From NCBI GenBank assembly GCA_964540835.1, contig CAZIOA010000001.1:1-42951 (forward strand): a stretch of 42,951 nt of DNA. The letters are read 5' to 3'. Shown here in pieces: positions 1,432 through 34,481 of the stretch. The stretch's first letter is position 1; the number at the start of each line of letters is the position of its first letter. Below the pieces are notes generated by a model. The model made no database searches. It had not been told where the DNA came from and saw nothing but the letters and a program-made list of their open reading frames with translations. The position numbers were made by a program, and so were the translations under genes. Source of the DNA: an uncultured Candidatus Saccharibacteria bacterium. GTDB lineage: Bacteria > Patescibacteriota > Saccharimonadia > Saccharimonadales > Saccharimonadaceae.

Positions 1432-3216
1432 CTAGCGTGCAGGCGCGAAGTTGCCCATGAAATCGTTTACCTGATCTACGATCTGATGCACAGGAGCTGG
1501 TGCTTCCGGTGGCGGAGGAGGAAGCTGGAATGCCGGTGCCGGTGGTGGCGGTGGTGGAGCAACTGGTGCAGGCGCAGGTGGCGCTACTTCTACGGGTGCT
1601 GGTGGTGGCGGTGGAGGCGGTGGAGCCACTTCCACGGGTGCAGACACTGCTGGTGCAGGTGGTAGCTCTACAGCAGGAAACGCTTCTTTTGCAACCTCTA
1701 CTGCTTTGTCGACAAGCTCTTTGACGGTAGGTTTGGCTGCTGGCACCTCAATGGGCACCTCTGGCGCTTGCGGTGGTGCTGGGACAAAATCCTCGACAGC
1801 ATCTTTCACTGCATTAACCGTGTCCTCGATGACTTCTTGAGGAGTAGGGAGCTCGGGAGTTTTAGCTTTTGGTGCCGCGGCAGCAGGGAGCGCATTTTTG
1901 AGCGCTTGAGGCACATCGAGTGGCGGCAGTACGTTCATATTTACCGTAGGAACTGACTCAGGCCGCAAGACAGAGTTTGGAATCTGCGCGATTTGATTCA
2001 GGTTGTGCTGCAACGAGTTCAAGCCATTTTGAATCGTCAACCCGGTATTGTGCAACGCTTGTCCAGGATTCATGATGGTGTTTTGTGTGCTGAAAAGCGC
2101 CTCGGCGACCATGTTTGGTACTTTGTTGACGAGTTCTAGCCCGAAGTCCACGAGAACACCAGGTACAAACCGAGTCATGACCCAGAAGAGATTTCCCGTG
2201 TTTAGCTGCTGATCCAGCGCGCGGGCAAACTCATCGACGGCGCACTGTCCGTTGACTTCAGGCAATCCGTCACGACCATTGTTGATCGGGAAGGCACAGT
2301 TCGCTGCTTTGTTCCAGTGGTCGTTGACATACATGCCGTTTGCCGCCGCTGCCTGTACGAGCGGATGAACGCCGACATCGTAGCGGAAGTGGATGACGCC
2401 ATACTCGTCCTGCCAAACCATATCCGGATTTCGGTCATGTACCGCATGAGCGGGGCTGGCACCTGTCGCGACGGCCTGCCACAAATTGCCGACCAAGTAT
2501 TGGTTCGCGCCGTTGCCCCAGATGTCGTTTTGCGACGAATGTTCATGTGAGCCTGGAGGAAGCATGGCGTTCATATCAACACCGGCAAGTGCCGCCCACG
2601 GCTCGCCAACCTTGCCCGGCAGACTGTTCCAAAAACCAGTCGAACTGGCTGGACCACCGTAGGAAACGACGAGTACATTTGGCGGTAGCACACCACCATG
2701 CTCACTGGCGATCATATGACCAGCGCGAGCGGCAGCGTCGGCTCCGAGCGAATGACCAACGATAAAGACTGGTTCGCCTCTACTGATTGCGCCACGTGAT
2801 GCTTCGACAGCTCTTACCGCTCCCTCCTCAGAGCATATCTTCATGCGGGCGACATCTGCGCAATACTCGATAGGTACGACGTTGTCTCCGGGACGAATCC
2901 AGCCTTCATGGTGCAGCTGGCCGATTGTACCGCTTGCATTCCAATCACCAAAACCACCTATCACATATTTGTTGACGGCGGAAAGATCAATCTCGTACGA
3001 TTTTGCCACCTCTTGCACGCTTGTTTGCGGTTCGCTCTCAGACGACGCCAGCATGCCGACGCCAGCCGTGACGACTATAGGCGCTACAGCAAGAGCCCCT
3101 AAGCTCCTGAGTGTATCGAGTTTGCTTCTCGGTTCTTTGTCATGGTTAGTAGAAAAACTTTCAAGCCCTCGTATAGTCAGCGCTTGCTCCCCTGAGGCAG
3201 ACCTTTTTTTACCCAT
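1432..3216 (-). CDS. Secreted or anchored lipase/esterase-like alpha/beta hydrolase with poly-proline C-terminal tail
   Basis: 594-aa ORF. N-terminal hydrophobic anchor (LGALAVAPIVVTAGVGMLA), classic nucleophile elbow VGHSLGA, and a tail of about 130 aa rich in PPPPPPPP/APAPV repeats. Block LDQQLNTGNLF is shared with 3369..5885. Confidence 0.85.
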   Translation of the reverse strand: MGKKRSASGEQALTIRGLESFSTNHDKEPRSKLDTLRSLGALAVAPIVVTAGVGMLASSESEPQTSVQEVAKSYEIDLSAVNKYVIGGFGDWNASGTIGQLHHEGWIRPGDNVVPIEYCADVARMKICSEEGAVRAVEASRGAISRGEPVFIVGHSLGADAAARAGHMIASEHGGVLPPNVLVVSYGGPASSTGFWNSLPGKVGEPWAALAGVDMNAMLPPGSHEHSSQNDIWGNGANQYLVGNLWQAVATGASPAHAVHDRNPDMVWQDEYGVIHFRYDVGVHPLVQAAAANGMYVNDHWNKAANCAFPINNGRDGLPEVNGQCAVDEFARALDQQLNTGNLFWVMTRFVPGVLVDFGLELVNKVPNMVAEALFSTQNTIMNPGQALHNTGLTIQNGLNSLQHNLNQIAQIPNSVLRPESVPTVNMNVLPPLDVPQALKNALPAAAAPKAKTPELPTPQEVIEDTVNAVKDAVEDFVPAPPQAPEVPIEVPAAKPTVKELVDKAVEVAKEAFPAVELPPAPAVSAPVEVAPPPPPPPPAPVEVAPPAPAPVAPPPPPPAPAFQLPPPPPEAPAPVHQIVDQVNDFMGNFAPAR

Positions 3217-3368: not shown

Positions 3369-5885
3369 TTAGTTAAATAGGTCGAAACCGACAGCAGGCG
3401 CAGATGGAGCGCTCACGGCAGGTGCCGATGGTTTCGGCACTGGAATATCAAACTTCGGGAGGGACGGTGCAGGTAGTGAATGTGCCGGACTTGGGGTGAA
3501 TTGCTTGACTATAGAAGGGAGTTTGAACGATGGAAATGCTGGCGCGGGTGCTGGCGGTGGCGCGGGTGCTGGCGGCAGCTCTACGACTGGCGGCTTTGGC
3601 GGTGGAGCGACGCGCACAGGAGCAGGCGCTGGCGCGGGTGGTATATATACCGGCTTGGGCGTTTCTAAGCGAGGCGGCTTCGGAGTATCTGCAACGACAG
3701 GCTTTGGCTGCTGTACCGGTTTAGGTGACGGAACTTCATAGGCTGGCGCATCGATGACACGTGGCGGAGTTGGGTCCGGGATCGAATGCACGGGCGGAGG
3801 AGTGATGGCAATCCTATGCTCCACGATGTCGTTGAGCGACTGGCGAGCAGGCTCCGCAGGGGATTTAGGAGCATCCACAGGGGGAGGTGTTTCTACTCGT
3901 ACATGCGTCGGAACGCTATTTGGCTGATCGTCAAGGATATCACTCGCCAGCTGGCCTAGCGATGCCAGTGAGTGTTGAGTAGTTTGTTGTGCCGGGTGAG
4001 GAGCAGTTTGTCGCGAGGCATTGGCAGACGCTAACTCTTGAGCAGTCATGGCGGCATATTGGATGAACTGATCGGCAATCATATTGAGCTCACGACCGAA
4101 GTCCATGCCAGTGTACTGTTTGATCTGGTCTCTCGCCGTGTTGACAACGAAGTTCTTGCCGTCACCAAGTGCGTTTTCGATGACGTGATCGACTTCGCCC
4201 ATGAGTTTGTTGATTTCGCCCATAACAGTGCTAAATGCACGTTGAGCGGCATTAAACTTCGTCAATGGGTCGACATTTGGATCATTGATAATCGCAGCGG
4301 CTTCACCGACAGCGCCTGCCATATGGTTAAAGCCATTCCAGCTATCATCCATCAGCTGCTTCCACGGCTCGGGCATATTCGCTACCAATGTCTGGAAGAA
4401 ATTGCCGGTACCAAACTGCGCGTCAAGTGCCTTGGCTCCATAATGTAGCGCTTCACGAACATTTGCTTCCGGTGGCGGTGCGTTCGGATCGTCATTGCGC
4501 GGAAAGAGGGCACGGAGCGCTCGATTAGCACTCTCGGTGTCCATGATCCTGATACCAGCCCTTTCAAGCGCATCAACGACCCATTCGTTTTCGCGGTGAG
4601 CAACCCAGTGCTCGATGCCGTTCGCATCCTTAAACATCGTCCATGTCACGCTCGGATCATTGCGATCAGGCACCTCATGAGTGCCGTGAGGAATACCGGC
4701 GATGCTATACATGAGGGAAGTAAAGCTTTCGTTGCCACCACTGGCATATGGGTCACGATCATTGTAGAACATGCGTATCTTCGCGCCAGGAGGAAATGCT
4801 TGCTCACCACCCGTGTCGCGGAGACCGATTAACCCCGTGCCGAGTTTGCCCCAAGGACTCTTATCTATACCCTCGGCTCCTTGCGGCCCACCGATCATAT
4901 CGATCGTCAGGTCGCCTGGCCACTTGTTGCCATTTTGCCGATATACGTCCCAGGCAAAATCCTGCCCGGCATACGTACCGAATGAATAATAGATGAAGTG
5001 CGCGTGTTCGCCGCGCGACTGGGATTCCTGGTATCTTGCCATGGAGACTGCCGAGCCCTCTTCAATCGACGTTTCTGGTGATCTAAAGGGGTTACCGATA
5101 CCCATATCGGCAGACCAAGTCATACCTTCGTCACGATTACCAGGAGCGTAACCTTTGGCGTCAAACTCCGGCATAGGAGCCATGACCTGGGTATTGCCAC
5201 CCATACCGTAAGACCTGGTCGTCACCACTGCGTGCTCTATCGTGCCCACTGAAGACGCGTATGAGACGGCAGCATTTTTCGCTTCGCGATCTGGCTTGTC
5301 GGCATGTACGCCACCAAAGAGTACTACGCCAAGCGCCGTGCCACCAGCAAGCACGGTCGCCATGGCTTTTGGCGCTGCGTCAGACGCCAACTCCTGTAAA
5401 CGAGCGGCGGAGCGACTAAGCGCCTTTTTCGTCCTCGTCGACAGTGGATCTTCATCGTTGATTTTAGTCTTTTCGCGTCTCTCCATGCGCGCCTGCAGCA
5501 CAAGTGTTCGCTCCTCTATAGTGTGCTCGCGATGATTCTGCCATTTATTTTGTGCAAAAGTGTAGGCATTTTCGGCCGCCACCACGAGGTTGCCACGAAC
5601 CTGTACGGCTTTTTCTCGAACATGTGTCAGCGATTCAGCGACACCCGCCGCGACCGCGTGCCGATAGTCGACCGGCTCATCCGAGTTTTTATCGAAGTCA
5701 AATAAATTTTCTTCGACCTCCTCACCGCGAAGGTATTTATAGATAGATTCGAGAAACAAGTCACTACCGAGGTCATCCAGCCCCTCTTCCGAAGCGAGAT
5801 ATTGCTCCATTTCTCGATCATGAGTAGCCAAGGCATCTAACGATACTTCAACCTCTGTCTCAGTTGTTACTAAACCTCGACTCAT
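3369..5885 (-). CDS. Membrane-anchored paralog of the poly-proline-tailed hydrolase family (possibly degenerate nucleophile)
   Basis: 838-aa ORF. Charged N-terminal region of about 170 aa, one TM (AMATVLAGGTALGVVLFGGV), core with YYSFGT elbow-like motif and LDAQFGTGNFF block homologous to 1432..3216, and a Pro-rich tail of about 200 aa (PAPAPAPV, PPAPAPPPAPAPAF). Confidence 0.8.
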   Translation of the reverse strand: MSRGLVTTETEVEVSLDALATHDREMEQYLASEEGLDDLGSDLFLESIYKYLRGEEVEENLFDFDKNSDEPVDYRHAVAAGVAESLTHVREKAVQVRGNLVVAAENAYTFAQNKWQNHREHTIEERTLVLQARMERREKTKINDEDPLSTRTKKALSRSAARLQELASDAAPKAMATVLAGGTALGVVLFGGVHADKPDREAKNAAVSYASSVGTIEHAVVTTRSYGMGGNTQVMAPMPEFDAKGYAPGNRDEGMTWSADMGIGNPFRSPETSIEEGSAVSMARYQESQSRGEHAHFIYYSFGTYAGQDFAWDVYRQNGNKWPGDLTIDMIGGPQGAEGIDKSPWGKLGTGLIGLRDTGGEQAFPPGAKIRMFYNDRDPYASGGNESFTSLMYSIAGIPHGTHEVPDRNDPSVTWTMFKDANGIEHWVAHRENEWVVDALERAGIRIMDTESANRALRALFPRNDDPNAPPPEANVREALHYGAKALDAQFGTGNFFQTLVANMPEPWKQLMDDSWNGFNHMAGAVGEAAAIINDPNVDPLTKFNAAQRAFSTVMGEINKLMGEVDHVIENALGDGKNFVVNTARDQIKQYTGMDFGRELNMIADQFIQYAAMTAQELASANASRQTAPHPAQQTTQHSLASLGQLASDILDDQPNSVPTHVRVETPPPVDAPKSPAEPARQSLNDIVEHRIAITPPPVHSIPDPTPPRVIDAPAYEVPSPKPVQQPKPVVADTPKPPRLETPKPVYIPPAPAPAPVRVAPPPKPPVVELPPAPAPPPAPAPAFPSFKLPSIVKQFTPSPAHSLPAPSLPKFDIPVPKPSAPAVSAPSAPAVGFDLFN

Positions 5886-13009: not shown

Positions 13010-13123
13010 CTTTTTGAGCAAGGTACGCTCTTGATTAGTGCACCAAGGACACCAATCAAGAGCATCTGGAGTCGCAGGCTAGAAGACCCTTGAGGTACTG
13101 CTTCGAGGAAGCCTCCTCCACAT

Positions 13124-13199
13124 GGGGGACGCGCTGAGCGCTTACGGGGTCAGCTCAGCGCGTCCCCCGCCCGTCGCATACATGTGACGGGCACTTTTT
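13124..13199 (+). terminator. Tandem hairpins ending in a Rho-independent terminator
   Basis: GGGGGACGCGCTGAGC/GCTCAGCGCGTCCCCC (16-bp stem, 13124-13168), then GCCCGTC-gcatacatgt-GACGGGC followed by ACTTTTTA (13169-13199). Confidence 0.6.
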
Positions 13200-13249
13200 A
13201 TATCTGCATAATATAGCTCTAGTATTTACGTATAATGAGAGAAGGCTTG

Positions 13250-14428
13250 ATGAAGAATTTTTGGGACACGCTACCACGACCATTTTTTGTACTGGCTCCT
13301 ATGGAGGCAGTGACTGATGTTGTGTTTCGTCATGTCGTGGCAGCCGCTGCGCCGCCCGACGTATGGTTTACTGAGTTTACCAACGCGACCGGCTGGGCGC
13401 ATGCAGGCGACAAGGCGATTGGTGAGCGATTGGTGAAAACGGACGACGAGAATCCGATTGTCGCACAGCTATGGGGAAGTGATCCGGCATCAATGAGCAA
13501 GCTTGCCAAACACTGTAAAGAGCTCGGCTACCATGGTATCGATATCAATATGGGATGTCCCGACAAATCAGCCGTCAAGAGCGGCGGAGGAGCGGGTATG
13601 ATCATGAATCCAGAGAATGCGGCTGCCATCATAACGGCAGCGAAAGAGAGCGGACTACCTGTCAGTGTAAAGACTCGTCTGGGTTACAGCAGGGTTGATG
13701 AGTGGCGAGACTGGCTGGCGCATCTGCTGAGACAAGACATCGTGAACCTGACGATACATCTCCGTACCAAAAAAGAGATGAGCAAAGTGCCAGCGCATTT
13801 CGAATTGATACCAGAGATCAAACAACTTCGTGACGAAATAGCGCCACAGACCTTTTTGACGATCAACGGCGATATCATGGACCGCGCGCACGGCATGGAG
13901 CTGGTCGACAAATACGGCGTCGATGGGGTAATGATAGGTCGCGGTATCTTTCACAATCCGTTCGCTTTTGAGAAAGTGCAGCACGAACCGTCCCGTGAAG
14001 AATTGCTTGGTCTACTAAGACTTCATCTGGATTTGCACGACCATCATGACAGTGTATCCCGCATTTCACACCTGGATGAAGCGCAAGGCGCCATTGAAGC
14101 ACGGCACGAACCGTACAAAAGGTACGGTGGAGTGAGTACTAGAGATGACAACGCAGCGATTCGCCAGGAGCCACCAGCGCAGGTAGCTGATGCTGCCTGG
14201 CAGGGTGGCGGTGTGAAAGGCGGGCGAAAGTTTGATCCGCTCAAACGTTTTTTCAAGGTGTATATGCATAGCTTTCCCGGAGCCGCAGAACTGCGAGATC
14301 AACTCATGCATACGAAAGACACTCAGGAAGTTCGCGCGGTTCTTTCTCAATTCTCAAGCATCCCACGACCCACGCGCTTGGATGCAGTACAAGGCGCTGG
14401 TGAAGCACGCAGCGAGTCGTATAGATAA
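13250..14428 (+). CDS. dus: tRNA-dihydrouridine synthase (Dus family) carrying an in-frame repeat-element insertion and a repeat-encoded C-terminus
   Basis: FVLAPMEAVTD and GIDINMGCP Dus motifs; C-terminal helical-domain sequence RKFDPLKRFFKVYMHSFPGAAELRDQL. ATG at 13250 follows GAGAAGG. The ORF-track ATG at 13235 overlaps the TATAAT box. Confidence 0.85.
   Translation: MKNFWDTLPRPFFVLAPMEAVTDVVFRHVVAAAAPPDVWFTEFTNATGWAHAGDKAIGERLVKTDDENPIVAQLWGSDPASMSKLAKHCKELGYHGIDINMGCPDKSAVKSGGGAGMIMNPENAAAIITAAKESGLPVSVKTRLGYSRVDEWRDWLAHLLRQDIVNLTIHLRTKKEMSKVPAHFELIPEIKQLRDEIAPQTFLTINGDIMDRAHGMELVDKYGVDGVMIGRGIFHNPFAFEKVQHEPSREELLGLLRLHLDLHDHHDSVSRISHLDEAQGAIEARHEPYKRYGGVSTRDDNAAIRQEPPAQVADAAWQGGGVKGGRKFDPLKRFFKVYMHSFPGAAELRDQLMHTKDTQEVRAVLSQFSSIPRPTRLDAVQGAGEARSESYR
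14064..14218 (+). repeat. Palindromic repeat element, copy A (inside the dus coding frame)
   Basis: Closing inverted repeat TTTCACACC/GGTGTGAAA. Internal hairpins CCGTAC-aaaag-GTACGG and CAGGTAGC-tgat-GCTGCCTG. Collinear with copies B and C. Confidence 0.85.
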
Positions 14429-14532
14429 TACGACGAGCGAGTACTGGAGCCAAGCAACGCAGTAATGAGCCAAAAGCACTGCAGCGCAGCGGTCTGTGAC
14501 CGCTGGCAGGCAGTGCAGTGCGTGGTCGTGGG
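14362..14532 (+). repeat. Palindromic repeat element, copy B (spans the dus 3' end and stop codon)
   Basis: Closing stem CCCACGACCCACGC/GCGTGGTCGTGGG. Hairpins GTCGTAT-agata-ATACGAC and GCACTG..CAGCGGT-ctgtg-ACCGCTG..CAGTGC. Very similar to copy C. Confidence 0.85.
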
Positions 14533-15492
14533 TTAGATAGGTAGGTTGATAAAGCTAGTCAGGCTACCCAGCAGACCCGACGCATTGCCAGCCATACCGT
14601 TTGCTATGCCGATCTGCGACGTGATTGCGGAGAATGAACCCATCAACCCACTCAAGCCCCCCAGACCGCCGAGCATACCGCTCAGATCGCTGATATTTCC
14701 AAGGTTGCCCAGATTGCCCAAGCTACCAAGACCGCCCAGACCGCCCATCATGCCGCTAAATGTCGCGACGAGCGCCATGACCAGCGTGATCGATGAAGCA
14801 AGTATAGACCCGATGGTAGTCATCATGGTAGAGATATTGTCAAGCTGAGACTGTGCGGAGGTGACGACTCCTTCGCCGTTAAGATTCAAGTCCACGCAAG
14901 TGCTTTTGTCCGTGTTGCCAGACAAGCACTTCCTGATTTTTGCTATTTGGCTCTGTAGCCCTCCGGCAGTTTTCTTGAGCTTGTCAAATACGCCAGACAA
15001 GCTCTCTATCGCTTTGGTTACGGCCGCTTGTACGTCCGTCAGTTGCGTGATCTGGAACTGCGCGTCGATATTCTTGGCAAGCGACTTCAAGTCACCCAGT
15101 GACATGGTGTTCGTGACTTTTTCCTGCATGGCTTTGAGCTGCTCAATGACTTTTTCGATGAACTTTTTGACTTTGTCTTTGAACTCGCTCGGCAATGTGT
15201 CTTTGTTTTTTGTGGTGTCTTTGTCGTTCAGGCCCTTTACCTGAAACGTTGTGCCGTTGCTGCTGATATGGATGTCTATGCTCAGGCTTTTTCTTGTTTT
15301 TTCGAAGTTTTCCAGACGGCGATCAATTTCTTTGAGCACCTTCTGCTTGAGCTCTTTGACTGCCTGCGTTTCGGCAGCGGCTTGTGCGTTTACCGTGGCT
15401 ACTGGCACCGATACAGCCAACAACATACTCATAAATAGCAGTGCGCATGCAGATACGGCCCTTGATGTGAAACGGGGGAGAGTGATATTCAT
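14533..15492 (-). CDS. Secreted coiled-coil protein with Gly/Leu-repeat hydrophobic C-terminus (hypothetical)
   Basis: Signal peptide MNITLPRFTSRAVSACALLFMSMLLAVSVPVATVNAQA, long K/E-rich helical region, and a C-terminal GGLGGLGSLGNLGNLGN...GGLGGLSGLMG tract. Confidence 0.65.
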   Translation of the reverse strand: MNITLPRFTSRAVSACALLFMSMLLAVSVPVATVNAQAAAETQAVKELKQKVLKEIDRRLENFEKTRKSLSIDIHISSNGTTFQVKGLNDKDTTKNKDTLPSEFKDKVKKFIEKVIEQLKAMQEKVTNTMSLGDLKSLAKNIDAQFQITQLTDVQAAVTKAIESLSGVFDKLKKTAGGLQSQIAKIRKCLSGNTDKSTCVDLNLNGEGVVTSAQSQLDNISTMMTTIGSILASSITLVMALVATFSGMMGGLGGLGSLGNLGNLGNISDLSGMLGGLGGLSGLMGSFSAITSQIGIANGMAGNASGLLGSLTSFINLPI

Positions 15493-17491: not shown

Positions 17492-18972
<1,481 letters not shown>

Positions 18973-20275: not shown

Positions 20276-20615
20276 CCTTAACCTCCCGAGCTACTTTACC
20301 AAGTGCTTCCTGTTTTGCGCGTCTTTGATTCTTTAGAAATTTATGAGATGGAACCGGAGTGTACTTTGAGTAAACGCCACTCCGACGCATAAGCCGCTCC
20401 GTAGCTGTCACTCGTTTTACCTCATCAGCTGTGTCTGTGTTATCTATCGCGCTAAACACCGCGCGTGCAGCTTGTCGATCAGCCAGTGTTTCATCGATAT
20501 CATCATTGGCCGCAGGCGCCTCGCGGTTCACGCGTCCACGTGCAAGCAGATCGGCATCAGCGCGGGCCCATCCGTCCAGCATTTCCATACTTTCGTCCGA
20601 CAAGTGTTCGGTCAT
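20268..20615 (-). CDS. Unknown 115-aa acidic/basic protein embedded between atpA and atpG
   Basis: Starts 3 nt after the atpA stop and overlaps the atpG start by 8 nt. No TM and no recognisable motif. Confidence 0.55.
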   Translation of the reverse strand: MTEHLSDESMEMLDGWARADADLLARGRVNREAPAANDDIDETLADRQAARAVFSAIDNTDTADEVKRVTATERLMRRSGVYSKYTPVPSHKFLKNQRRAKQEALGKVAREVKDA

Positions 20616-20618
20616 TGT

Positions 20619-22154
20619 CTACCCTTCGAATCCTTTCGCTACAGCTACGGCGACTTTCTCGAGCAATTTGGCTGTTTTGGAATCGTCAGTTATCTTTTCG
20701 TCGCCCTTGTTGAGTTCCTGCATGTCCTTTTTGTGGTCGGTCCATAGGCGAGTGAGTAGGGCAGTCTGCGCGTCCTTGATCTTGCTGACGGCAACTTTGT
20801 CGAACGCACCGCTGTTGACCGCGTAGATAGAAGCGACTTGCTCCCAAACGCCAAGAGGACTGTACTGAGGCTGCTTGAGCAGCTCTGTCAGGCGCTGACC
20901 GCGCTCGATCTGGCTCTTGGTCGCTTCGTCCAGGTCGCTACCGAACTGCGCAAATGACGCAAGTTCGCGGAACTGTGACAGGCCAAGTTTCAGGTGAGAG
21001 CCAACGGATTTGACAGACTTCGTCTGCGCGTCACCACCGACACGGCTCACAGAAAGACCTGCCGAGATAGCTGGGCGGATACCCTGGTTGAAGAGGTCTG
21101 TCTCCATGAAGATCTGACCGTCGGTAATAGAGATAACGTTGGTCGGAATGTATGCAGAAATGTCACCAGCCTGCGTCTCGATGATAGGCAGTGCAGTGAG
21201 TGAACCTGCGCCCAGGTCGTCAGACAATTTCGCAGATCGCTCCAGAAGGCGAGAGTGTAGATAGAAGACGTCGCCAGGGAAGGCTTCGCGTCCCGGTGGG
21301 CGGCGGAGCAGCAGTGACATCTGGCGGTAGGCGACAGCGTGCTTGGTTAGATCGTCGTAGATGATGAGCGCGTGTTTTTTGTTGTCGCGGAAGTACTCGC
21401 CCATGGCAGTACCAGCGTATGGCGCCAGGTAGAGTAGGGAGGCGGGGTCAGACGGACCAGTCGCGACGATGATGGTTTGATCCATCACGCCTTCTTCTTT
21501 CAATCGTTCGACGAGGCGGGCGATTTTCGACAGTTTCTGGCCGACAGCGACGTAAATGTTGACGACGCCGGTCTTTTGGCGGCCTTGGTTGATCATGGTA
21601 TCGATCGCGATAGCCGTCTTGCCAGTCTGGCGATCGCCGATAATAAGCTCACGCTGGCCACGACCGATAGGGAACATCGCGTCGATCGCCATGACACCGG
21701 TCATCATAGGCTCGTGGACGTGCTTACGACCGAGGACGCCGATCGCTTCACGTTCAACCAAGCCTCGGTGTTTGGTCTTGATAGCAGGACCGCCATCGAG
21801 CGGACGACCAAGCGGATCAACCACGCGGCCGAGGAGCTCTTCGCCCACGGGAACGTCCAGAATCGTGCCCTTGAGCGTCACTTTCGCGCCAGCTGCAACC
21901 TCTTCATCGCTGCCCAACAGCACGGCACCGATTTCGTCTTCGTTCAGGTTCAAGGCAAATGCTTCGACCGTACCGCTCTTCGTTTCGATAAGCAACACTT
22001 CGCTCGCACCGGCACTGCGAAGGCCGTACACCCAAGCCACGCCGTCACCGACGCGGGTGACGATACCGACGCTTTCCAAATCGCCAGATACTTCGAGTGC
22101 GGCAATCGCATCGCGGAGATCCTTGCTGAGTTCTGTAACTGTTAATTCTGCCAT
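20619..22154 (-). CDS. atpA: F1 ATP synthase alpha subunit
   Basis: Walker A GDRQTGKT; 511 aa; typical alpha sequence throughout. Confidence 0.95.
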
Positions 22155-23383: not shown

Positions 23384-23507
23384 CAACCTGCACATTTGAG
23401 TGCAGTTCGGGATGAAAAGCGAGCACCGCAGCGAAGACGTACACAAAACGTACGGCGAAGCGAGGAGACGGAGCTTTACATCCGAAATGCGCCAAATGTG
23501 AAGGTTG
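23384..23507 (+). repeat. Palindromic repeat element, divergent short copy D (atpB-atpE spacer)
   Basis: Closing stem CAACCTGCACATTTG/CAAATGTGAAGGTTG (14 of 15 paired) and GGATGAAAAGC/GCTTTACATCC. The central GCACCGCAGCGAAGACGTAC-acaaaac-GTACGGCGAAGCGAGGAGACGGAG aligns with the left half of copies A-C. Confidence 0.6.
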
Positions 23508-28239: not shown

Positions 28240-29865
28240 ATGGGTAATCATGAAACCGAAAAATATGACGATTTTGAGACGATAGAGGGTGAGTCGGTCA
28301 TCGTTTGTATTGACGGCGTATCCAAGATCGAAGAGATGTTCGGTTCCGAATCGCTCTCAGCCCCGACAAATCTAGAAATTGAAAAAGACGTCAACTGGCC
28401 TCGACCGACAAAAAGCATGTCAGTCGAGCTGCTGCCGCTCGAAACAGATATCGACGGGGCGACCCTCGCTACGCGATCAATCAGTACAACGCTAACGTTT
28501 CCAAAATTCAAAGAGATTCCAGATGACGCGCTTGTATCATTCATAACGAATCGCCTCCACGAGGAAACGGGGATACACACGGATTTTTACCCGACGATTC
28601 ATGATGGCGACCACATGGAACACTGGATTTGCGCGCATGATGAATACGCCCTCGTATTTCAAATGCGGAGCAAGGAAAATGAACTATCGCTCCGCGCGTA
28701 TTCTGAGTATGACGATGTACCGGACAAAGATCAGATCAATAGACGTAAGTTGCAGCTGTTCTACATAGCTTCCACGCTCGCGCTCGACGCGTTGGCCAGC
28801 CAACTACCAAATCAAGAAATGAACACACAACGAACTCTCATACGCATTTCTCCTCCTGAAATTAATGAGGAGGGGTTAGAGCAAGAGACAGATGAAACCA
28901 ACGAGCCGGAGGACGCACCTGGAAAGGAATTGGAATTGTGGGTCGGTGAGGAAGAAGCGCCTATAAGGGAGCTGCTTGGACGACCATTTGATACCATCGG
29001 TGGACTGACGCTCGCCAAAGAAAAGTTACTCGAAATAGGTCTCGCATGGACATATCCCGAACTCGCCAAAGAATACGACATACAGCCTTCGCACTTCGTC
29101 CTCCATGGCCCTCCCGGTACGGGCAAAACCTCGCTCATAACGGCCTTCGCCGAAGAATTCGACGCAGAGCTTGTCGCAAAGCCTTCAACCACAATCGTGA
29201 ACGCTTATCTCGGTAAATCAGCCACGAATCTGGCCGACGCATTCAAAGAAGCAACTGACAAGGCAGAAAAGCAAAGAGTCCTATTGTTTTTTGACGAAAT
29301 CGATTCGTTAATAGGAAATAACAGCAAGCAACACCGCGAATACGGCCAGGTAGTAAATACGTTCAAACAGGAACTCGATAATCTAGCCAAATCGCCACAC
29401 TGCAGGAACGTCATCGTAGCGGCAGCGACAAATGCCGATATACAAGACCTCGAACCTGCGATCGTACGCTCTGGCAGGATCGAACCGATTCCCGCGCCAG
29501 CGCCAAACGAAAAAGAGCGCATAGATATCTGGTCGCGACTTATCTACACGTCCGAAGATATCAAAAGAGAAATCGATGCGGTGCAAAACGACAAAGATGA
29601 CGACGAAGAGCTGGTTGCCGCCAGCAAACTGAACCCGTCTCGCTTCGACAAAGATATCGATATCGGCAAACTTGCCAAATTGACCGAAGGAAAAACCGGA
29701 GCCGACTTCGTACAGATTTTGAAACGGATCCGCGTCAAAAAGTTTCGTCAAGCAGTCGGGCTCATAGCTTCGGGCAGACAAATAGAGCATGACGAAAATC
29801 CCCACGTCAAACTCATCACGCAAGTCGATATCGAAGATGCTATACGAACGTTTGGCGTGACTTAG
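28240..29865 (+). CDS. Classical-clade AAA+ ATPase with a unique N-terminal domain of about 270 aa
   Basis: Walker A HGPPGTGKT, Walker B LLFFDEIDS, second region of homology ATNADIQDLEPAIVRSGRIE. Single AAA module. Confidence 0.85.
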   Translation: MGNHETEKYDDFETIEGESVIVCIDGVSKIEEMFGSESLSAPTNLEIEKDVNWPRPTKSMSVELLPLETDIDGATLATRSISTTLTFPKFKEIPDDALVSFITNRLHEETGIHTDFYPTIHDGDHMEHWICAHDEYALVFQMRSKENELSLRAYSEYDDVPDKDQINRRKLQLFYIASTLALDALASQLPNQEMNTQRTLIRISPPEINEEGLEQETDETNEPEDAPGKELELWVGEEEAPIRELLGRPFDTIGGLTLAKEKLLEIGLAWTYPELAKEYDIQPSHFVLHGPPGTGKTSLITAFAEEFDAELVAKPSTTIVNAYLGKSATNLADAFKEATDKAEKQRVLLFFDEIDSLIGNNSKQHREYGQVVNTFKQELDNLAKSPHCRNVIVAAATNADIQDLEPAIVRSGRIEPIPAPAPNEKERIDIWSRLIYTSEDIKREIDAVQNDKDDDEELVAASKLNPSRFDKDIDIGKLAKLTEGKTGADFVQILKRIRVKKFRQAVGLIASGRQIEHDENPHVKLITQVDIEDAIRTFGVT

Positions 29866-30295: not shown

Positions 30296-30376
30296 TCTCT
30301 CTTTTTGGCTCTTTCTCTCAGTGGTAACAAATAGGCTATTTTATATTTGCGCCTATACGCGTATAATGTGCCCTCA

Positions 30377-31804
30377 ATGAAGGGACTTGGGAGAAATACA
30401 ATCGATGATTTCCGGTATGGCGTACCGGAGCGTGCGTTTGGCAGCGAAGTCGAATACACGCACCGGAGGGAAATCGTGCAACCGTTTAAAGATCGCTACC
30501 TTGACGCACCCGAATCCCAGCTGATTTTTTATGTTTCGCCTGAATACGCGGTTGCGCCAGGCAGGAATCATCATGACAGTGTGATCACGAGGAACGGCGG
30601 CGAACTGTATCTTGACTTGACATCACTGGAATTCGCGACACCGGAATGCCGGACACCAAGCGAGCTGGTAACGCATGAACGGGCTGGTGAAGTGATCGTC
30701 GCAGATGTCGTCGACCGACTATCGAATCACTTCGGCACGAAAGAAAAAGTTTTCAAACGAACCGGTTATGTGGACACCGTGGTGGCCGACAAGCGATTCA
30801 GTCAAGACAGTATTGGATATCACGAAAGCTATACAAGCATGAACGAATTCACGACACACTCGGCGTCGACAGCATATGGCAAGGAAACAAAAAAGCTCAA
30901 GGAGGCGCAGTGCTTATGTGATTTTCTCGCGCTTCGAAAACTAATCGACGGCGCGGGAATGGTAGCAAATAATCATTTTTCACTAAGCCAAAAAAGTCGC
31001 GCGATCAACTTCAATTACTACCGAAAAGAAGGCGTGAGAGGTGGCACGAAAGAACCTTTTTACATAAAATCAAGCCGTCTGGAAGTGAGGGCTGGCGAAA
31101 ACAGCAAATCCGACTGGGCAACCGAGTTTACGTTCGGGGTGACATCGCTCGTGCTACGCCTGCTCGAACATCAGCGGTATCCCGAACATTTAATGCTTCG
31201 AGACGCAAACGATGCAGCGCGACGAGTTGCCAGAACTCCCAATGCGGCAGTCGCACTGCAGTCCGGAATAACCATGCGTGCAATCGACGTCCTGAAAGAA
31301 ATCGTCGAAGAAGCATACGCGCTCGCAAGCGCATACCCGGATATGCCCGAGTATGAAGAAAAGGCGTTTCAGGACTTCCAAAAATTCTATGCCGACATGC
31401 ACCGGATCAGCTTACGTGATCACGATGTCAAGGCCCTTGCAGATCGAATCAACTGGGCGGCGAGGTTCGACTTTTTGGTCAAGGCTGGGGCGACTTACGA
31501 TACGTTTACCGCATCAGATCTCAATCAGATCAGCCACGATCTAGTGTGGGATCGAATCGGCGAAAAAGACATCGCCCGACGCAGACTGAGCAAGTTGGGG
31601 TTGACTGCACTGACAGCTGACGTGCTAGGGCCACCGCAAACCCGCGCAGCCACGAGGATTAAGATAGCTGGCAATCTATATAAAGAAGATAACCTGCGAT
31701 CCGTCGAATGGTTCAAGGTGACGCCAAAGACTGGTGAACCCCGACTACTGGGCGGTCCACTAAATACTCAAGCCACATGGCCAGACGGCAGCCTCGTCGA
31801 TTAG
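30377..31804 (+). CDS. Pup-ligase/deamidase family protein (PafA/Dop-like carboxylate-amine ligase)
   Basis: FGSEVEY, NGGELYLDLTSLEFATPECRTPSELVTHERAGE, GYHESY, LIDGAG, LSQKSRA, RLEVRAGENS and PPQTRAATR are collinear with remembered PafA/Dop blocks. ATG at 30377 lies 9 nt after TATAAT (ORF-track TTG at 30347). Confidence 0.8.
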   Translation: MKGLGRNTIDDFRYGVPERAFGSEVEYTHRREIVQPFKDRYLDAPESQLIFYVSPEYAVAPGRNHHDSVITRNGGELYLDLTSLEFATPECRTPSELVTHERAGEVIVADVVDRLSNHFGTKEKVFKRTGYVDTVVADKRFSQDSIGYHESYTSMNEFTTHSASTAYGKETKKLKEAQCLCDFLALRKLIDGAGMVANNHFSLSQKSRAINFNYYRKEGVRGGTKEPFYIKSSRLEVRAGENSKSDWATEFTFGVTSLVLRLLEHQRYPEHLMLRDANDAARRVARTPNAAVALQSGITMRAIDVLKEIVEEAYALASAYPDMPEYEEKAFQDFQKFYADMHRISLRDHDVKALADRINWAARFDFLVKAGATYDTFTASDLNQISHDLVWDRIGEKDIARRRLSKLGLTALTADVLGPPQTRAATRIKIAGNLYKEDNLRSVEWFKVTPKTGEPRLLGGPLNTQATWPDGSLVD

Positions 31805-32791: not shown

Positions 32792-33967
32792 CTAGTTATC
32801 ATTCTCTGCGATGACTTCTTGGTAAACTTTCTCGAACTGCGGTATGACATTTCGGACATCATGCTTTTTCGCGATCTCAAGACTTCGCTTGCCATACGCC
32901 TGGCGTCGCTTCGGATGGTCGAGTAGCTGCATCAAAGCTTCCGCCATCGCTTCGACGTCATCGACGTCGATCAGGTAGCCATTCTTACCCGTCAAACACA
33001 GCTCGCCAAGCGCGCCCGCGTCGACAGCAACGACCGGTTTGCCGCTCGCCATTGCTTCGAGCATAGCCAGACACTGCAGCTCAGTCGGCGACGGCATAGC
33101 ATAGATATCTCCCACGCGATGAAGCTGCTGTAAATCATCATCAGAAACCAAACCAGTAAATGTCACGTGATCATCAAGACGCAGCGTGCTCACCAGCTCA
33201 CGCAAGCCCTCAGATGCATTGCCTGCGCCAACGATCAGAGCATGAAACTCCTTGCCAGACCAGTGCAACAACTCGAGCGCCTGCACCAGGATGTGGATAT
33301 GCTTTTCCTCGTCGAGCCGACCGATATAGCTGATGATAGGCTTACCGCGTGGTATATCAAACTTAGCGTAGATTTCATCATCTGGCTTGAGAGGTTTGAA
33401 GCGATCCAGATTGATACCATTGCTGATCGCGACAGCCGGTGCTTCGATTCGCGACAAATTAAATAGCCCCAGCGCTGATTCCGTCGGCATGATGATGCGC
33501 TTCGCGCCCTTGTATAGCAACGATCCGTACTCAGTCAAAATATAGCTGAACGGTCGCGAAACCGGCGCGAGAATCTTGATATTTTTTACCATGTTGTCCG
33601 GCATGACGTGGTTGGTCGCCACCACTGGGATACCGCGGTGCACGGCGGCTCTCAACATGCCGATACCTACCGTGAACTGCGTGTGCACATGCACGACATC
33701 CGGCTGAAACTCGTCGAGGATTCGCCGCATCTCTCGATCATACGTCACTGAAACGCGGAAATTTTTGCGAAAGTACAGACCAAACGACCGTATACGCATG
33801 ATGCGATAATTTTCGTCAACCTCCTGATAGCCGCGACCAGTCTGTGACGGCGCAACGACCATGACATCATGCCCCTGAACACTTAACCCTTGTGCGAGCG
33901 TGCGACATGCCGTGGCAACACCGCTCTTCATCGGCCAGTGCTGGTCGTTTGCAATGAGGATACGCAT
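32792..33967 (-). CDS. Glycosyltransferase family 4
   Basis: MRILIAND...GVATACRTLAQGL N-terminus and an E(x7)E-type region (PTELQCLAMLEAMASGKPVVA). Confidence 0.85.
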   Translation of the reverse strand: MRILIANDQHWPMKSGVATACRTLAQGLSVQGHDVMVVAPSQTGRGYQEVDENYRIMRIRSFGLYFRKNFRVSVTYDREMRRILDEFQPDVVHVHTQFTVGIGMLRAAVHRGIPVVATNHVMPDNMVKNIKILAPVSRPFSYILTEYGSLLYKGAKRIIMPTESALGLFNLSRIEAPAVAISNGINLDRFKPLKPDDEIYAKFDIPRGKPIISYIGRLDEEKHIHILVQALELLHWSGKEFHALIVGAGNASEGLRELVSTLRLDDHVTFTGLVSDDDLQQLHRVGDIYAMPSPTELQCLAMLEAMASGKPVVAVDAGALGELCLTGKNGYLIDVDDVEAMAEALMQLLDHPKRRQAYGKRSLEIAKKHDVRNVIPQFEKVYQEVIAENDN

Positions 33968-34004
33968 TTGATTGCCATTATACCATGGTCAAGCCTGGCA
34001 CAAT

Positions 34005-34160
34005 TTTCACACTTGGATGCAGTACAAGGCGCTGGTGAAGCACGGAACGAGCCGTATAAACAATACGGTGAAGTGAGTACTGGAGCTAGTAACGCAGTAA
34101 TGTGCCAAGAGCACTGCGGCGCAGCGGTCTGCGACCGCTGGCAGGCAGTGCGGTGTGTAA
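34005..34160 (+). repeat. Palindromic repeat element, copy C (divergent promoter region)
   Basis: TTTCACAC...GTGTGTAA ends. Hairpins CCGTAT-aaaca-ATACGG and GCACTG..CAGCGGT-ctgcg-ACCGCTG..CAGTGC. Near-identical to copy B. Confidence 0.85.
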
Positions 34161-34181
34161 ATTGTGGTAGAATAAGGGCAA

Positions 34182-34481
34182 ATGGGCAGTTATCATCCCT
34201 TTTTAAAAGCAATTCCGTACACCATTATTTTTTTTGCGATCGTACACCTGCTACTGAGCTTTTTTTATAGCATCTTGCACGGCGATCCAGACATAGCCAA
34301 CATGTTCCACGTACTTGGGTTCGATCTGTTTTGGCCCGAAATCGGCAAAGGTGGTCTCAACGCGCTCATCAGCGCCACGGTCGTCGCGCTTACTGGCATC
34401 GCTGCCGCGCTTATACTACGTTGGCGCGATCGACAGGCAGACCGCTTGCGCGAATCAACCAAACGTAAAGCAAAACAATGA
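34182..34481 (+). CDS. Small membrane protein (99 aa, hypothetical)
   Basis: Two hydrophobic segments and a basic C-terminus. Overlaps the next gene by 4 nt (ATGA). Confidence 0.55.
   Translation: MGSYHPFLKAIPYTIIFFAIVHLLLSFFYSILHGDPDIANMFHVLGFDLFWPEIGKGGLNALISATVVALTGIAAALILRWRDRQADRLRESTKRKAKQ

Follow-up and report, generated by a model that had tools for sequence, protein, structure and literature searches.

Can a palindromic repeat lodged in the frame of a working gene be kept for its fold rather than for the codons that it supplies? We met this question in a stretch of 42,951 nt from an uncultured Candidatus Saccharibacteria bacterium (contig CAZIOA010000001.1 of assembly GCA_964540835.1, positions 1 to 42,951; hereafter the window). 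There, dus, the gene for a tRNA-dihydrouridine synthase (Dus), carries an in-frame copy (copy A) of a hairpin element that is present four times in the window. In-frame palindromic repeats have been a Rickettsia curiosity for 25 years, and whether they are parasites or have a function was left open. The same behaviour is now seen in an unrelated lineage with reduced genomes, the episymbiotic Saccharibacteria, with enough diverged orthologs to read selection directly: in a working gene, the hairpin is protected and the codons are ignored. We argue that copy A is probably a strand-specific structured element of a Saccharibacteria-wide family, with a fold that is selected, most likely as RNA, and a peptide that is a by-product. 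What is new is an element family in a new phylum, together with direct evidence, drawn from sequence comparison, that an in-frame copy appears to be maintained for its nucleic-acid structure.

Copy A is an in-frame insertion in a functional dus gene

The dus gene (13235..14428, + strand) encodes a protein of 397 aa that matches Pfam PF01207 (E=1.8e-48) and Dus entries in the PDB, and its catalytic TIM barrel aligns fully to solved Dus structures. Copy A occupies 14058..14224 on the + strand (167 nt); its boundaries, like those of the other window copies (B to D), were set by direct helix extension. It has the three-way form of the element, with an outer stem (P1), a long arm, and a second hairpin. 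The covariance model of the family matched at 14067-14173 (102.2 bits), and the fold has a predicted energy of -77 kcal/mol (z = -6.2 versus shuffles). The dus open reading frame (ORF) has no stop throughout copy A, which is translated as Dus residues ~275-330 and adds ~56 residues. An earlier note on this DNA had placed an in-frame repeat inside dus, and this was borne out: its span, 14064-14218, is the core of the element delimited here.

The note had also taken the block to be an insertion, and the ortholog alignment agrees. A phmmer alignment with Thermotoga maritima Dus (1vhn) paired query residues 20-267 with chain residues 9-253 and query residues 328-371 with chain residues 258-302. 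Because ~60 query residues thus stand opposite 4 in 1vhn, the block is an insertion. In an alignment of 26 Dus proteins, it was confined to the query and to P0001-P0005 (76-92% identical), and P0006 kept a short remnant. The top-ranking Dus homologs are labelled as Saccharibacteria, as are the MAGs that supplied the related loci. Other Saccharibacteria Dus proteins, of ~315 aa, do not have the block (lengths are mostly ~313-320 aa among the best 120 listed), and more than 100 orthologs are without the insert.

AlphaFold2 predicted the TIM barrel with confidence and returned a predicted local distance difference test score (pLDDT) of 25-29 across residues 277-330, between helices 254-283 and 334-346. 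In the model, the insert forms a disordered loop of the C-terminal helical domain; the earlier note had named a surface loop as something to look for. Six other Saccharibacteria Dus proteins (P0046, P0047, P0068, P0079, P0087, and P0090) have unrelated low-complexity expansions of 30-110 residues (alignment columns ~317-430), and these sit elsewhere, in the linker that joins the TIM barrel to the helical domain. Dus tolerates insertions at several surface sites.

We compared six orthologous dus genes carrying copy A. In the flanks of the element, the ratio of nonsynonymous to synonymous change (dN/dS) was 0.03-0.08 in 15 of 15 pairs. The 42 codons 3' of the insert retain a coding signature, with proportions of synonymous (pS) and nonsynonymous (pN) differences of 0.6-1.1 and 0.04-0.21, respectively. 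Low flank dN/dS and constrained downstream codons show that dus is not a pseudogene and that the frame continues through the element. These comparisons indicate that the ribosome reads through copy A and that Dus is under strong purifying selection on both sides of the insert.

Selection acts on the fold and not on the codons

Within the same six genes, the element evolves quite differently from its flanks. The flanks show synonymous saturation (pS 0.60-0.86), whereas pS is only 0.03-0.40 in the element and its dN/dS is 0.43-1.7. Identities at codon positions 1, 2, and 3 are 0.86, 0.92, and 0.48 in the flanks versus 0.81, 0.77, and 0.81 in the element, which is without codon periodicity. When a sliding window was moved along dus, third-position identity ranged from 0.35 to 0.69 and reached 0.75-0.82 solely over codons 271-330; this peak persisted with the closest pair left out.

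The base pairs of the element are kept in the six orthologs: 94.3% of 366 pair cells are paired. Double-sided changes occurred in 17 of the 61 pairs, versus 7.1 +/- 1.7 in shuffled controls (none of 500 reached 17) and 1-4 in slid controls. The unpaired core motifs are invariant among the six copies, and there are no indels. The copies found in exonuclease III genes (see below) gave a weaker signal in the same direction, with a pS of 0.64-0.77 in the flanks versus 0.44-0.54 in the element. Taken together, third-position conservation, the lack of codon periodicity, and compensatory changes argue for selection on the nucleic-acid fold. Read from these alignments, the in-gene copy is under purifying selection on its nucleotides and base pairs, not on its codons.

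A conserved structured element across the Saccharibacteria

We scanned a genome collection (one genome per prokaryotic species) for the exact pattern of the element and obtained 48 loci, all but two in metagenome-assembled genomes (MAGs) of Saccharibacteria/Patescibacteria type, from soil, groundwater, hypersaline mats, and animal guts. One outlier locus is labelled as a Gammaproteobacteria MAG. A Leucobacter locus (L042) scored only 14.8 bits with the covariance model and was set aside as a chance pattern match. A metagenome scan added 83 further loci; four of its pattern matches (L093, L105, L123, and L124) failed the covariance model and were dropped. With the model, the first set yielded 62 matches at E<=1, of which two (E=0.0012 and E=0.69) are doubtful, and the second set yielded 91 at E<=0.001, with 75 unique copies.

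The copies share a common anatomy. The outer stem of ~20 bp is free in sequence and keeps its pairing. It carries a long irregular arm with the conserved core GGAUGMAG-YR-CAAGGC ... GARGNACGG ... CCGUAY-loop-RUACGG ... GAGYA ... AACGCAG-YR-AUKCGCC. About half of the copies have a second hairpin, with the loop GCUNUGC and a 3' CAGG bulge. The simple form has a median length of 123 nt (68 copies) and the three-way form one of 169 nt (56 copies). The element ends always pair with each other, over a median of 11-12 bp beyond the core. Their sequence is conserved within lineages only (L083, L077, and L048, for instance, share TAGAACTTYCAG) and changes from genome to genome, whereas the interior is conserved.

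The fold is supported by covariation throughout. A consensus of 53 copies has 32 pairs, 23 of which show compensatory double changes, and 11 of the 12 pairs of the second hairpin covary (37 copies). Covariation extends outside the positions fixed by the search: the M of GGAUGMAG varies with the K of AUKCGCC, the two YR dinucleotides vary with each other, and the outer stem covaries as well. Purines make up 61.5% of the sense strand, which gave the better fold of the two strands in 52 of 59 copies (-39.3 versus -33.7 kcal/mol for the complement, p=2e-10); thus, the fold is strand-specific.

We searched for the element among known families. Rfam 15 gave no match at the gathering score over the window, and at E<=10 over 13900-14700 it gave one spurious 8-bit match only. 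A tRNA and tmRNA scan found none, and a blastn search with copy C found no matches in phage and plasmid collections. Literature on repeats, transposable elements of the miniature inverted-repeat type (MITEs), and structured RNAs of Saccharibacteria and the candidate phyla radiation yielded no description of the element. The family is confined almost entirely to the Saccharibacteria and is without prior description. Its core of sequence and structure is conserved class-wide, it is low-copy in most genomes, and it behaves like a selected structured nucleic acid. For a phylum in which hardly any non-coding RNAs have been described, it provides a well-supported candidate RNA motif.

Several other identities were considered and rejected. 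A template or variable repeat of a diversity-generating retroelement was ruled out because the differences between copies are not adenine-specific and covary as base pairs. Domain V of a group II intron was considered for a resemblance (GAGCCGUAU...AUACGG), but Rfam gave no match and the upper helix is lacking. Kink-turn and sarcin-ricin motifs were considered by eye, and since the Y of GAGYA pairs by Watson-Crick covariation, it does not belong to a loop-E motif. A conserved peptide gene inside the element was also ruled out, the frame being open in only 20 of 54 copies.

The element spreads

Mechanical repeat finding located three copies in the window (A versus C, 78%; B versus C, 81-90%). 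A fourth, diverged copy (D) was recovered by the covariance model at 23391-23501. All four copies lie on the + strand. The family-specific pattern matched three times in the window versus 0.00 expected (100 shuffles).

Copy B (14352..14532, + strand) has the three-way form, with a covariance-model match at 14373-14479 (97.6 bits) and a fold z score of -4.8. It lies at the convergent junction of dus and a minus-strand gene (14533-15492), and its last base adjoins the TAA of that gene (14533-14535). Copy B replaces the original C-terminus of Dus: it supplies the last ~20 codons (~376-397) and the stop, so that dus now terminates at a TAA within the apical loop of the long arm of copy B. The tail derived from it (residues 380-397) was predicted by AlphaFold2 with low confidence. 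In L001, L004, L006, and L009, copy B is missing at the same junction and the gene ends overlap. The minus-strand gene, whose stop touches copy B, encodes 319 aa with a signal-like N-terminus and a C-terminal repeat rich in G, L, and S (GGLGGLGSLGNLGNLGN...); its Pfam matches were weak and sub-threshold only.

Copy C (33999..34166, + strand) also has the three-way form (match at 34008-34114, 100.8 bits; fold z = -2.6). It is intergenic, between a GT4 glycosyltransferase gene (32792-33967, - strand) and a small ORF (34182-34481, + strand). As the earlier note had observed, the frame used in dus is stop-free in copy C; yet this is no property of the family, given that only 12 of 46 intergenic copies are open in it.

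Copy D (23384..23507, + strand) is a diverged simple hairpin of 124 nt (41.8 bits, E=1.8e-8). It sits in the atpB-atpE spacer, antisense to the atp operon. The corresponding spacer of L009 (40 nt, ~20608-20645) is empty. In L001, the spacer holds a different short copy of ~85 nt (18757-18840), in sense orientation, on the other strand and at another point. The atpB-atpE spacer was struck twice independently and is a possible hot spot of insertion.

Both copy B and copy D were gained in a lineage-specific manner, showing that the element spreads. It can also be lost, as the dus gene of L009 has a 117-nt in-frame internal deletion of the element, which is the remnant of P0006 seen at the DNA level. 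Across the genome collection, strict matches mostly number one per genome, with up to four. At the other extreme, the metagenomic contig L083 (1-7871) packs five copies into 7.9 kb; almost every spacer among rny, hup, a pilin-like gene, tig, ppa, and nusA holds one, and the ends of these copies are conserved (TAGAACTTYCAG). Amplification has gone much further in some lineages than in the window genome. By inspection, no consistent direct repeats that could be target-site duplications were found in the 10-nt flanks of 124 delimited copies or in two empty-site comparisons. No transposase or integrase genes were found in the window or beside the loci inspected; whole genomes were not searched.

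Genomic placement and repeated capture by genes

Most copies occupy short intergenic spacers, in either orientation. Their orientation relative to neighbouring genes is random (20 loci mostly on the same strand, 25 mostly on the opposite strand), and about ten copies lie antisense between tandem genes. One location recurs: in eight loci (L024, L034, L046, L063, L069, L086, L107, and L116), a sense copy lies 21-25 nt upstream of the start of rpmA, the gene for L27. These rpmA-linked copies begin right after the stop of the upstream gene. The rpmA leader may be an ancestral or regulatory location of the element.

Insertion into genes has happened at least five times independently, at three Dus sites, in exonuclease III, and in a TatD hydrolase. 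The C-terminal site in dus is shared by six lineages, and L088 carries copies in a second Dus, at two other positions. The exonuclease III site is occupied in L054, L056, and L082 and the TatD site in L084. All in-gene copies are in sense orientation and are read in one common frame (..LD(E/A)xQG..E.R.E.Y..). That frame is open in 8 of 8 in-gene copies of the first set but in only 12 of the 46 intergenic ones; open frames are more frequent on the reverse strand. Genic copies are open in one frame and intergenic copies mostly are not; thus, genic copies pass a filter. The sense rule of in-gene copies may also reflect a requirement for sense transcription.

In two loci, L037 (6016-7011) and L097 (~1645), type IV pilin-like genes that follow one another have copies upstream of them. 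ORFs called mechanically there run through the element and give pilin precursors with long spurious N-terminal extensions. Annotators should be warned that ORF extensions and odd loops of 40-60 residues in Saccharibacteria proteins may be element-derived.

What is selected?

Our best guess, as far as alignments can inform it, is that the fold acts at the RNA level. Most likely, selection would see an RNA fold that forms within the transcript and offers a trans-acting protein or an RNase a module for docking or processing. The long perfect outer helix (~20 bp) could be the handle, and the conserved purine-rich loops could form part of the docking or processing site. By analogy, the mode of action may resemble that of enterobacterial repetitive intergenic consensus (ERIC) elements (RNase E) and Correia elements (RNase III) on mRNA. 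The encoded peptide would be a tolerated by-product. A wider version of this proposal is possible, and we hold it tentatively: the element would be a new class of functional Saccharibacteria RNA, either a platform for a conserved protein or RNase or a self-processing RNA. Its ancestral home would perhaps be the rpmA leader, and its copying into new transcripts would connect unrelated housekeeping genes (dus, xth, tatD, atp, nusA, and others) in a single post-transcriptional circuit. If so, the same nucleotides would serve as codons and as RNA structure, with structure dominating their evolution.

Several points weigh against an RNA selected for its fold. Tolerance of a hydrophilic, stop-free peptide is sufficient by itself to explain the sense and frame rule of the in-gene copies. 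The selected form could also be single-stranded DNA. Intergenic copies in both orientations cannot all be explained by a purely cis-acting role in mRNA, barring antisense or independent transcription, and no partner protein was identified. Finally, the window and L001 differ at only 5 element positions, versus 30-35 in other sister pairs, so that local recombination or exchange is possible in this pair; the conclusion that the fold is selected is independent of it.

A first alternative is a purely selfish element similar to MITEs or to the Rickettsia palindromic elements (RPEs), the dus copy being a tolerated passenger whose conservation results from recent spread, homing, or gene conversion. 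Lineage-specific gains and losses, the wide variation in copy number among genomes (one to five per 8 kb), termini that are conserved within a lineage, and the unusual similarity of the window-L001 element pair all fit such an element. However, the six dus copies occupy one orthologous site where synonymous sites are saturated, and they show lineage-specific compensatory changes. They form a group apart from the window's copies B, C, and D, so conversion from those is not seen. The invariance of their unpaired core motifs and the copy kept 21-25 nt upstream of rpmA in eight genomes are likewise hard to reconcile with a passenger, and we consider it unlikely. The earlier note had favoured a peptide-inserting selfish element. 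Selfish DNA that happens to stay open is by itself no sufficient account of dus, in which the copy is conserved far beyond the neutral rate without codon periodicity and with many compensatory changes.

The main rival to a folded RNA is a fold of single-stranded DNA, either as the substrate of a hairpin-recognising enzyme (a HUH transposase of IS200-IS605 type, a transposase associated with repetitive extragenic palindromes, or the enzyme of an attC-like site) or as a replication signal. Orientation would then follow replication instead of transcription. Such a substrate would account for the strand-specific fold and for the random orientation relative to neighbouring genes. A replication-strand bias of the element is possible: all four window copies are on one strand, and 42 of 54 loci, taken whole, have a negative GC skew on the strand of the element. 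GC skew at third codon positions, a better marker of replication, is not significant, however (29 of 46 negative). Moreover, no transposase or integrase gene lies beside the copies examined, the element ends pair mutually, unlike those of IS200/IS605, and the conserved boxes lie inside the element, whereas attC has them at the base of the stem. The lack of matches in plasmid and phage collections also speaks against a DNA substrate, which we regard as improbable.

Could the element be removed from dus mRNA, as an intron or a processed intervening sequence, and never be translated? Its high structure and long closing helix would suit excision, and the rRNA genes of the candidate phyla radiation carry insertions that are removed. 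Against this, 12 of 12 in-gene copies (5 events) are open and in frame versus 26% of intergenic copies, the six dus orthologs have no indels, and no Rfam intron or ribozyme family matches; excision is therefore very unlikely. Still harder to credit is a gain at the protein level, that is, a peptide module selected in Dus for its amino acids. The motif LD(E/A)xQG..E.R.E.Y does recur in the Dus, exonuclease III, and TatD inserts, but codon periodicity is absent inside the element, where dN/dS reaches 0.43-1.7, pLDDT is 25-29, the L009 lineage deleted 39 codons and left the gene intact, and most intergenic copies have stops in that frame. The other suggestion of the earlier note, a dus pseudogene that happens to stay open, has nothing beyond the two element-derived segments in its favour and is effectively refuted by the flank dN/dS of 0.03-0.08 in 15 pairs, the coding constraint 3' of the insert, and the full alignment of the TIM barrel to solved structures.

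Comparison with known systems

The folded element that we propose to be selected as RNA can be set beside several known families. RPE-1 to RPE-10 are the palindromic elements of Rickettsia (Ogata et al. 2000, 2002, as far as summarised in PMC10969869). Like them, the element consists of palindromic repeats of ~100-170 nt in several copies in a reduced-genome, host-dependent bacterium (here four copies in 43 kb). It has likewise been inserted repeatedly and in frame into unrelated housekeeping genes without inactivating them, with a fixed frame whose conserved hydrophilic peptide falls at positions that the protein fold can accommodate. The two belong to different phyla, and the likeness is behavioural: we class the element as working like an RPE, not as a member. 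Unlike RPEs, it is low-copy in most genomes and has a core conserved class-wide with heavy covariation, and its orthologous in-gene copy is under nucleotide-level purifying selection. RPEs, by contrast, reportedly deteriorate after insertion (Amiri and colleagues, in 2002). The RPE-like character claimed in the earlier note thus stands in part: the element is palindromic, duplicating, 120-170 nt long, and in frame in a functional gene, with at least five events, but it is not simply selfish. In behaviour, it is the closest counterpart of the RPEs outside Rickettsia.

ERIC elements, also called intergenic repeat units (IRU), of Enterobacteriaceae are 127-bp imperfect palindromes found mostly in transcribed intergenic spacers, with occasional intragenic copies that have open frames (PMC10969869, PMC2759123). 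In Yersinia, they have an RNA-level effect on mRNA decay via RNase E (PMC10969869). The element shares with ERIC a low, lineage-variable copy number, occurrence in either orientation, and conservation of orthologous copies above the neutral rate (third-position identity of 0.81 in the element versus 0.48 in the flanks). ERIC sequence is likewise said to be conserved beyond neutral expectation (Wilson and Sharp, in 2006). The element differs by its conserved purine-rich internal loops, its optional second hairpin, and its variable outer stem, and in-frame genic copies are recurrent here, not exceptional. It resembles ERIC in evolutionary signature; the relationship that we claim is behavioural only, and the phylum is another one.

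Transcripts that contain Correia elements of Neisseria are cut by RNase III (PMC10969869). As in Correia elements and other MITEs, the terminal inverted repeats form a long RNA helix. The definition of a MITE asks for conserved terminal inverted repeats, duplicated target sites, and a parent insertion sequence. Here, however, it is the interior that is conserved, with termini that differ from lineage to lineage; inspection showed no consistent target-site duplication, and a parent insertion sequence was not found (the search did not extend to whole genomes). With Rfam 15 families such as ribosomal-protein leaders and self-cleaving ribozymes, the element shares covarying helices around conserved unpaired nucleotides and strand specificity, and its fixed position upstream of rpmA in eight genomes is leader-like. 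Unlike those families, none of which it matches, it turns up in numerous unrelated contexts, on either strand, and within coding sequence. Integron attC sites are imperfect hairpins whose interior varies and whose base carries the conserved R''/R' core sites (RYYYAAC / GTTRRRY), and they lie in arrays of cassette ORFs. We rejected this identity: the stem base of the element is variable and its interior conserved, and its copies lie in housekeeping operons in both orientations.

Neighbourhood of the window

Elsewhere in the window, an AAA ATPase and a protein of the prokaryotic ubiquitin-like protein (Pup) ligase family (PF03136, E=9e-40) are encoded close together, at 28240-29865 and 30347-31804. 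Genes of the pupylation type are characteristic of Actinobacteria, which usually serve as hosts of Saccharibacteria, and horizontal acquisition is possible. Two large ORFs (1432-3216 and 3369-5885, both on the - strand) have no Pfam match and contain glycine-rich direct repeats of the GGTGGCGGTG type, at 1494-1649 and 3542-3640. Upstream of dus, the 540-nt gap that follows a UvrD-like helicase gene holds a GC-rich inverted repeat (gggggacgcgctgagcg...cgctcagcgcgtccccc) at 13110-13175, which is terminator-like and unrelated to the element family.

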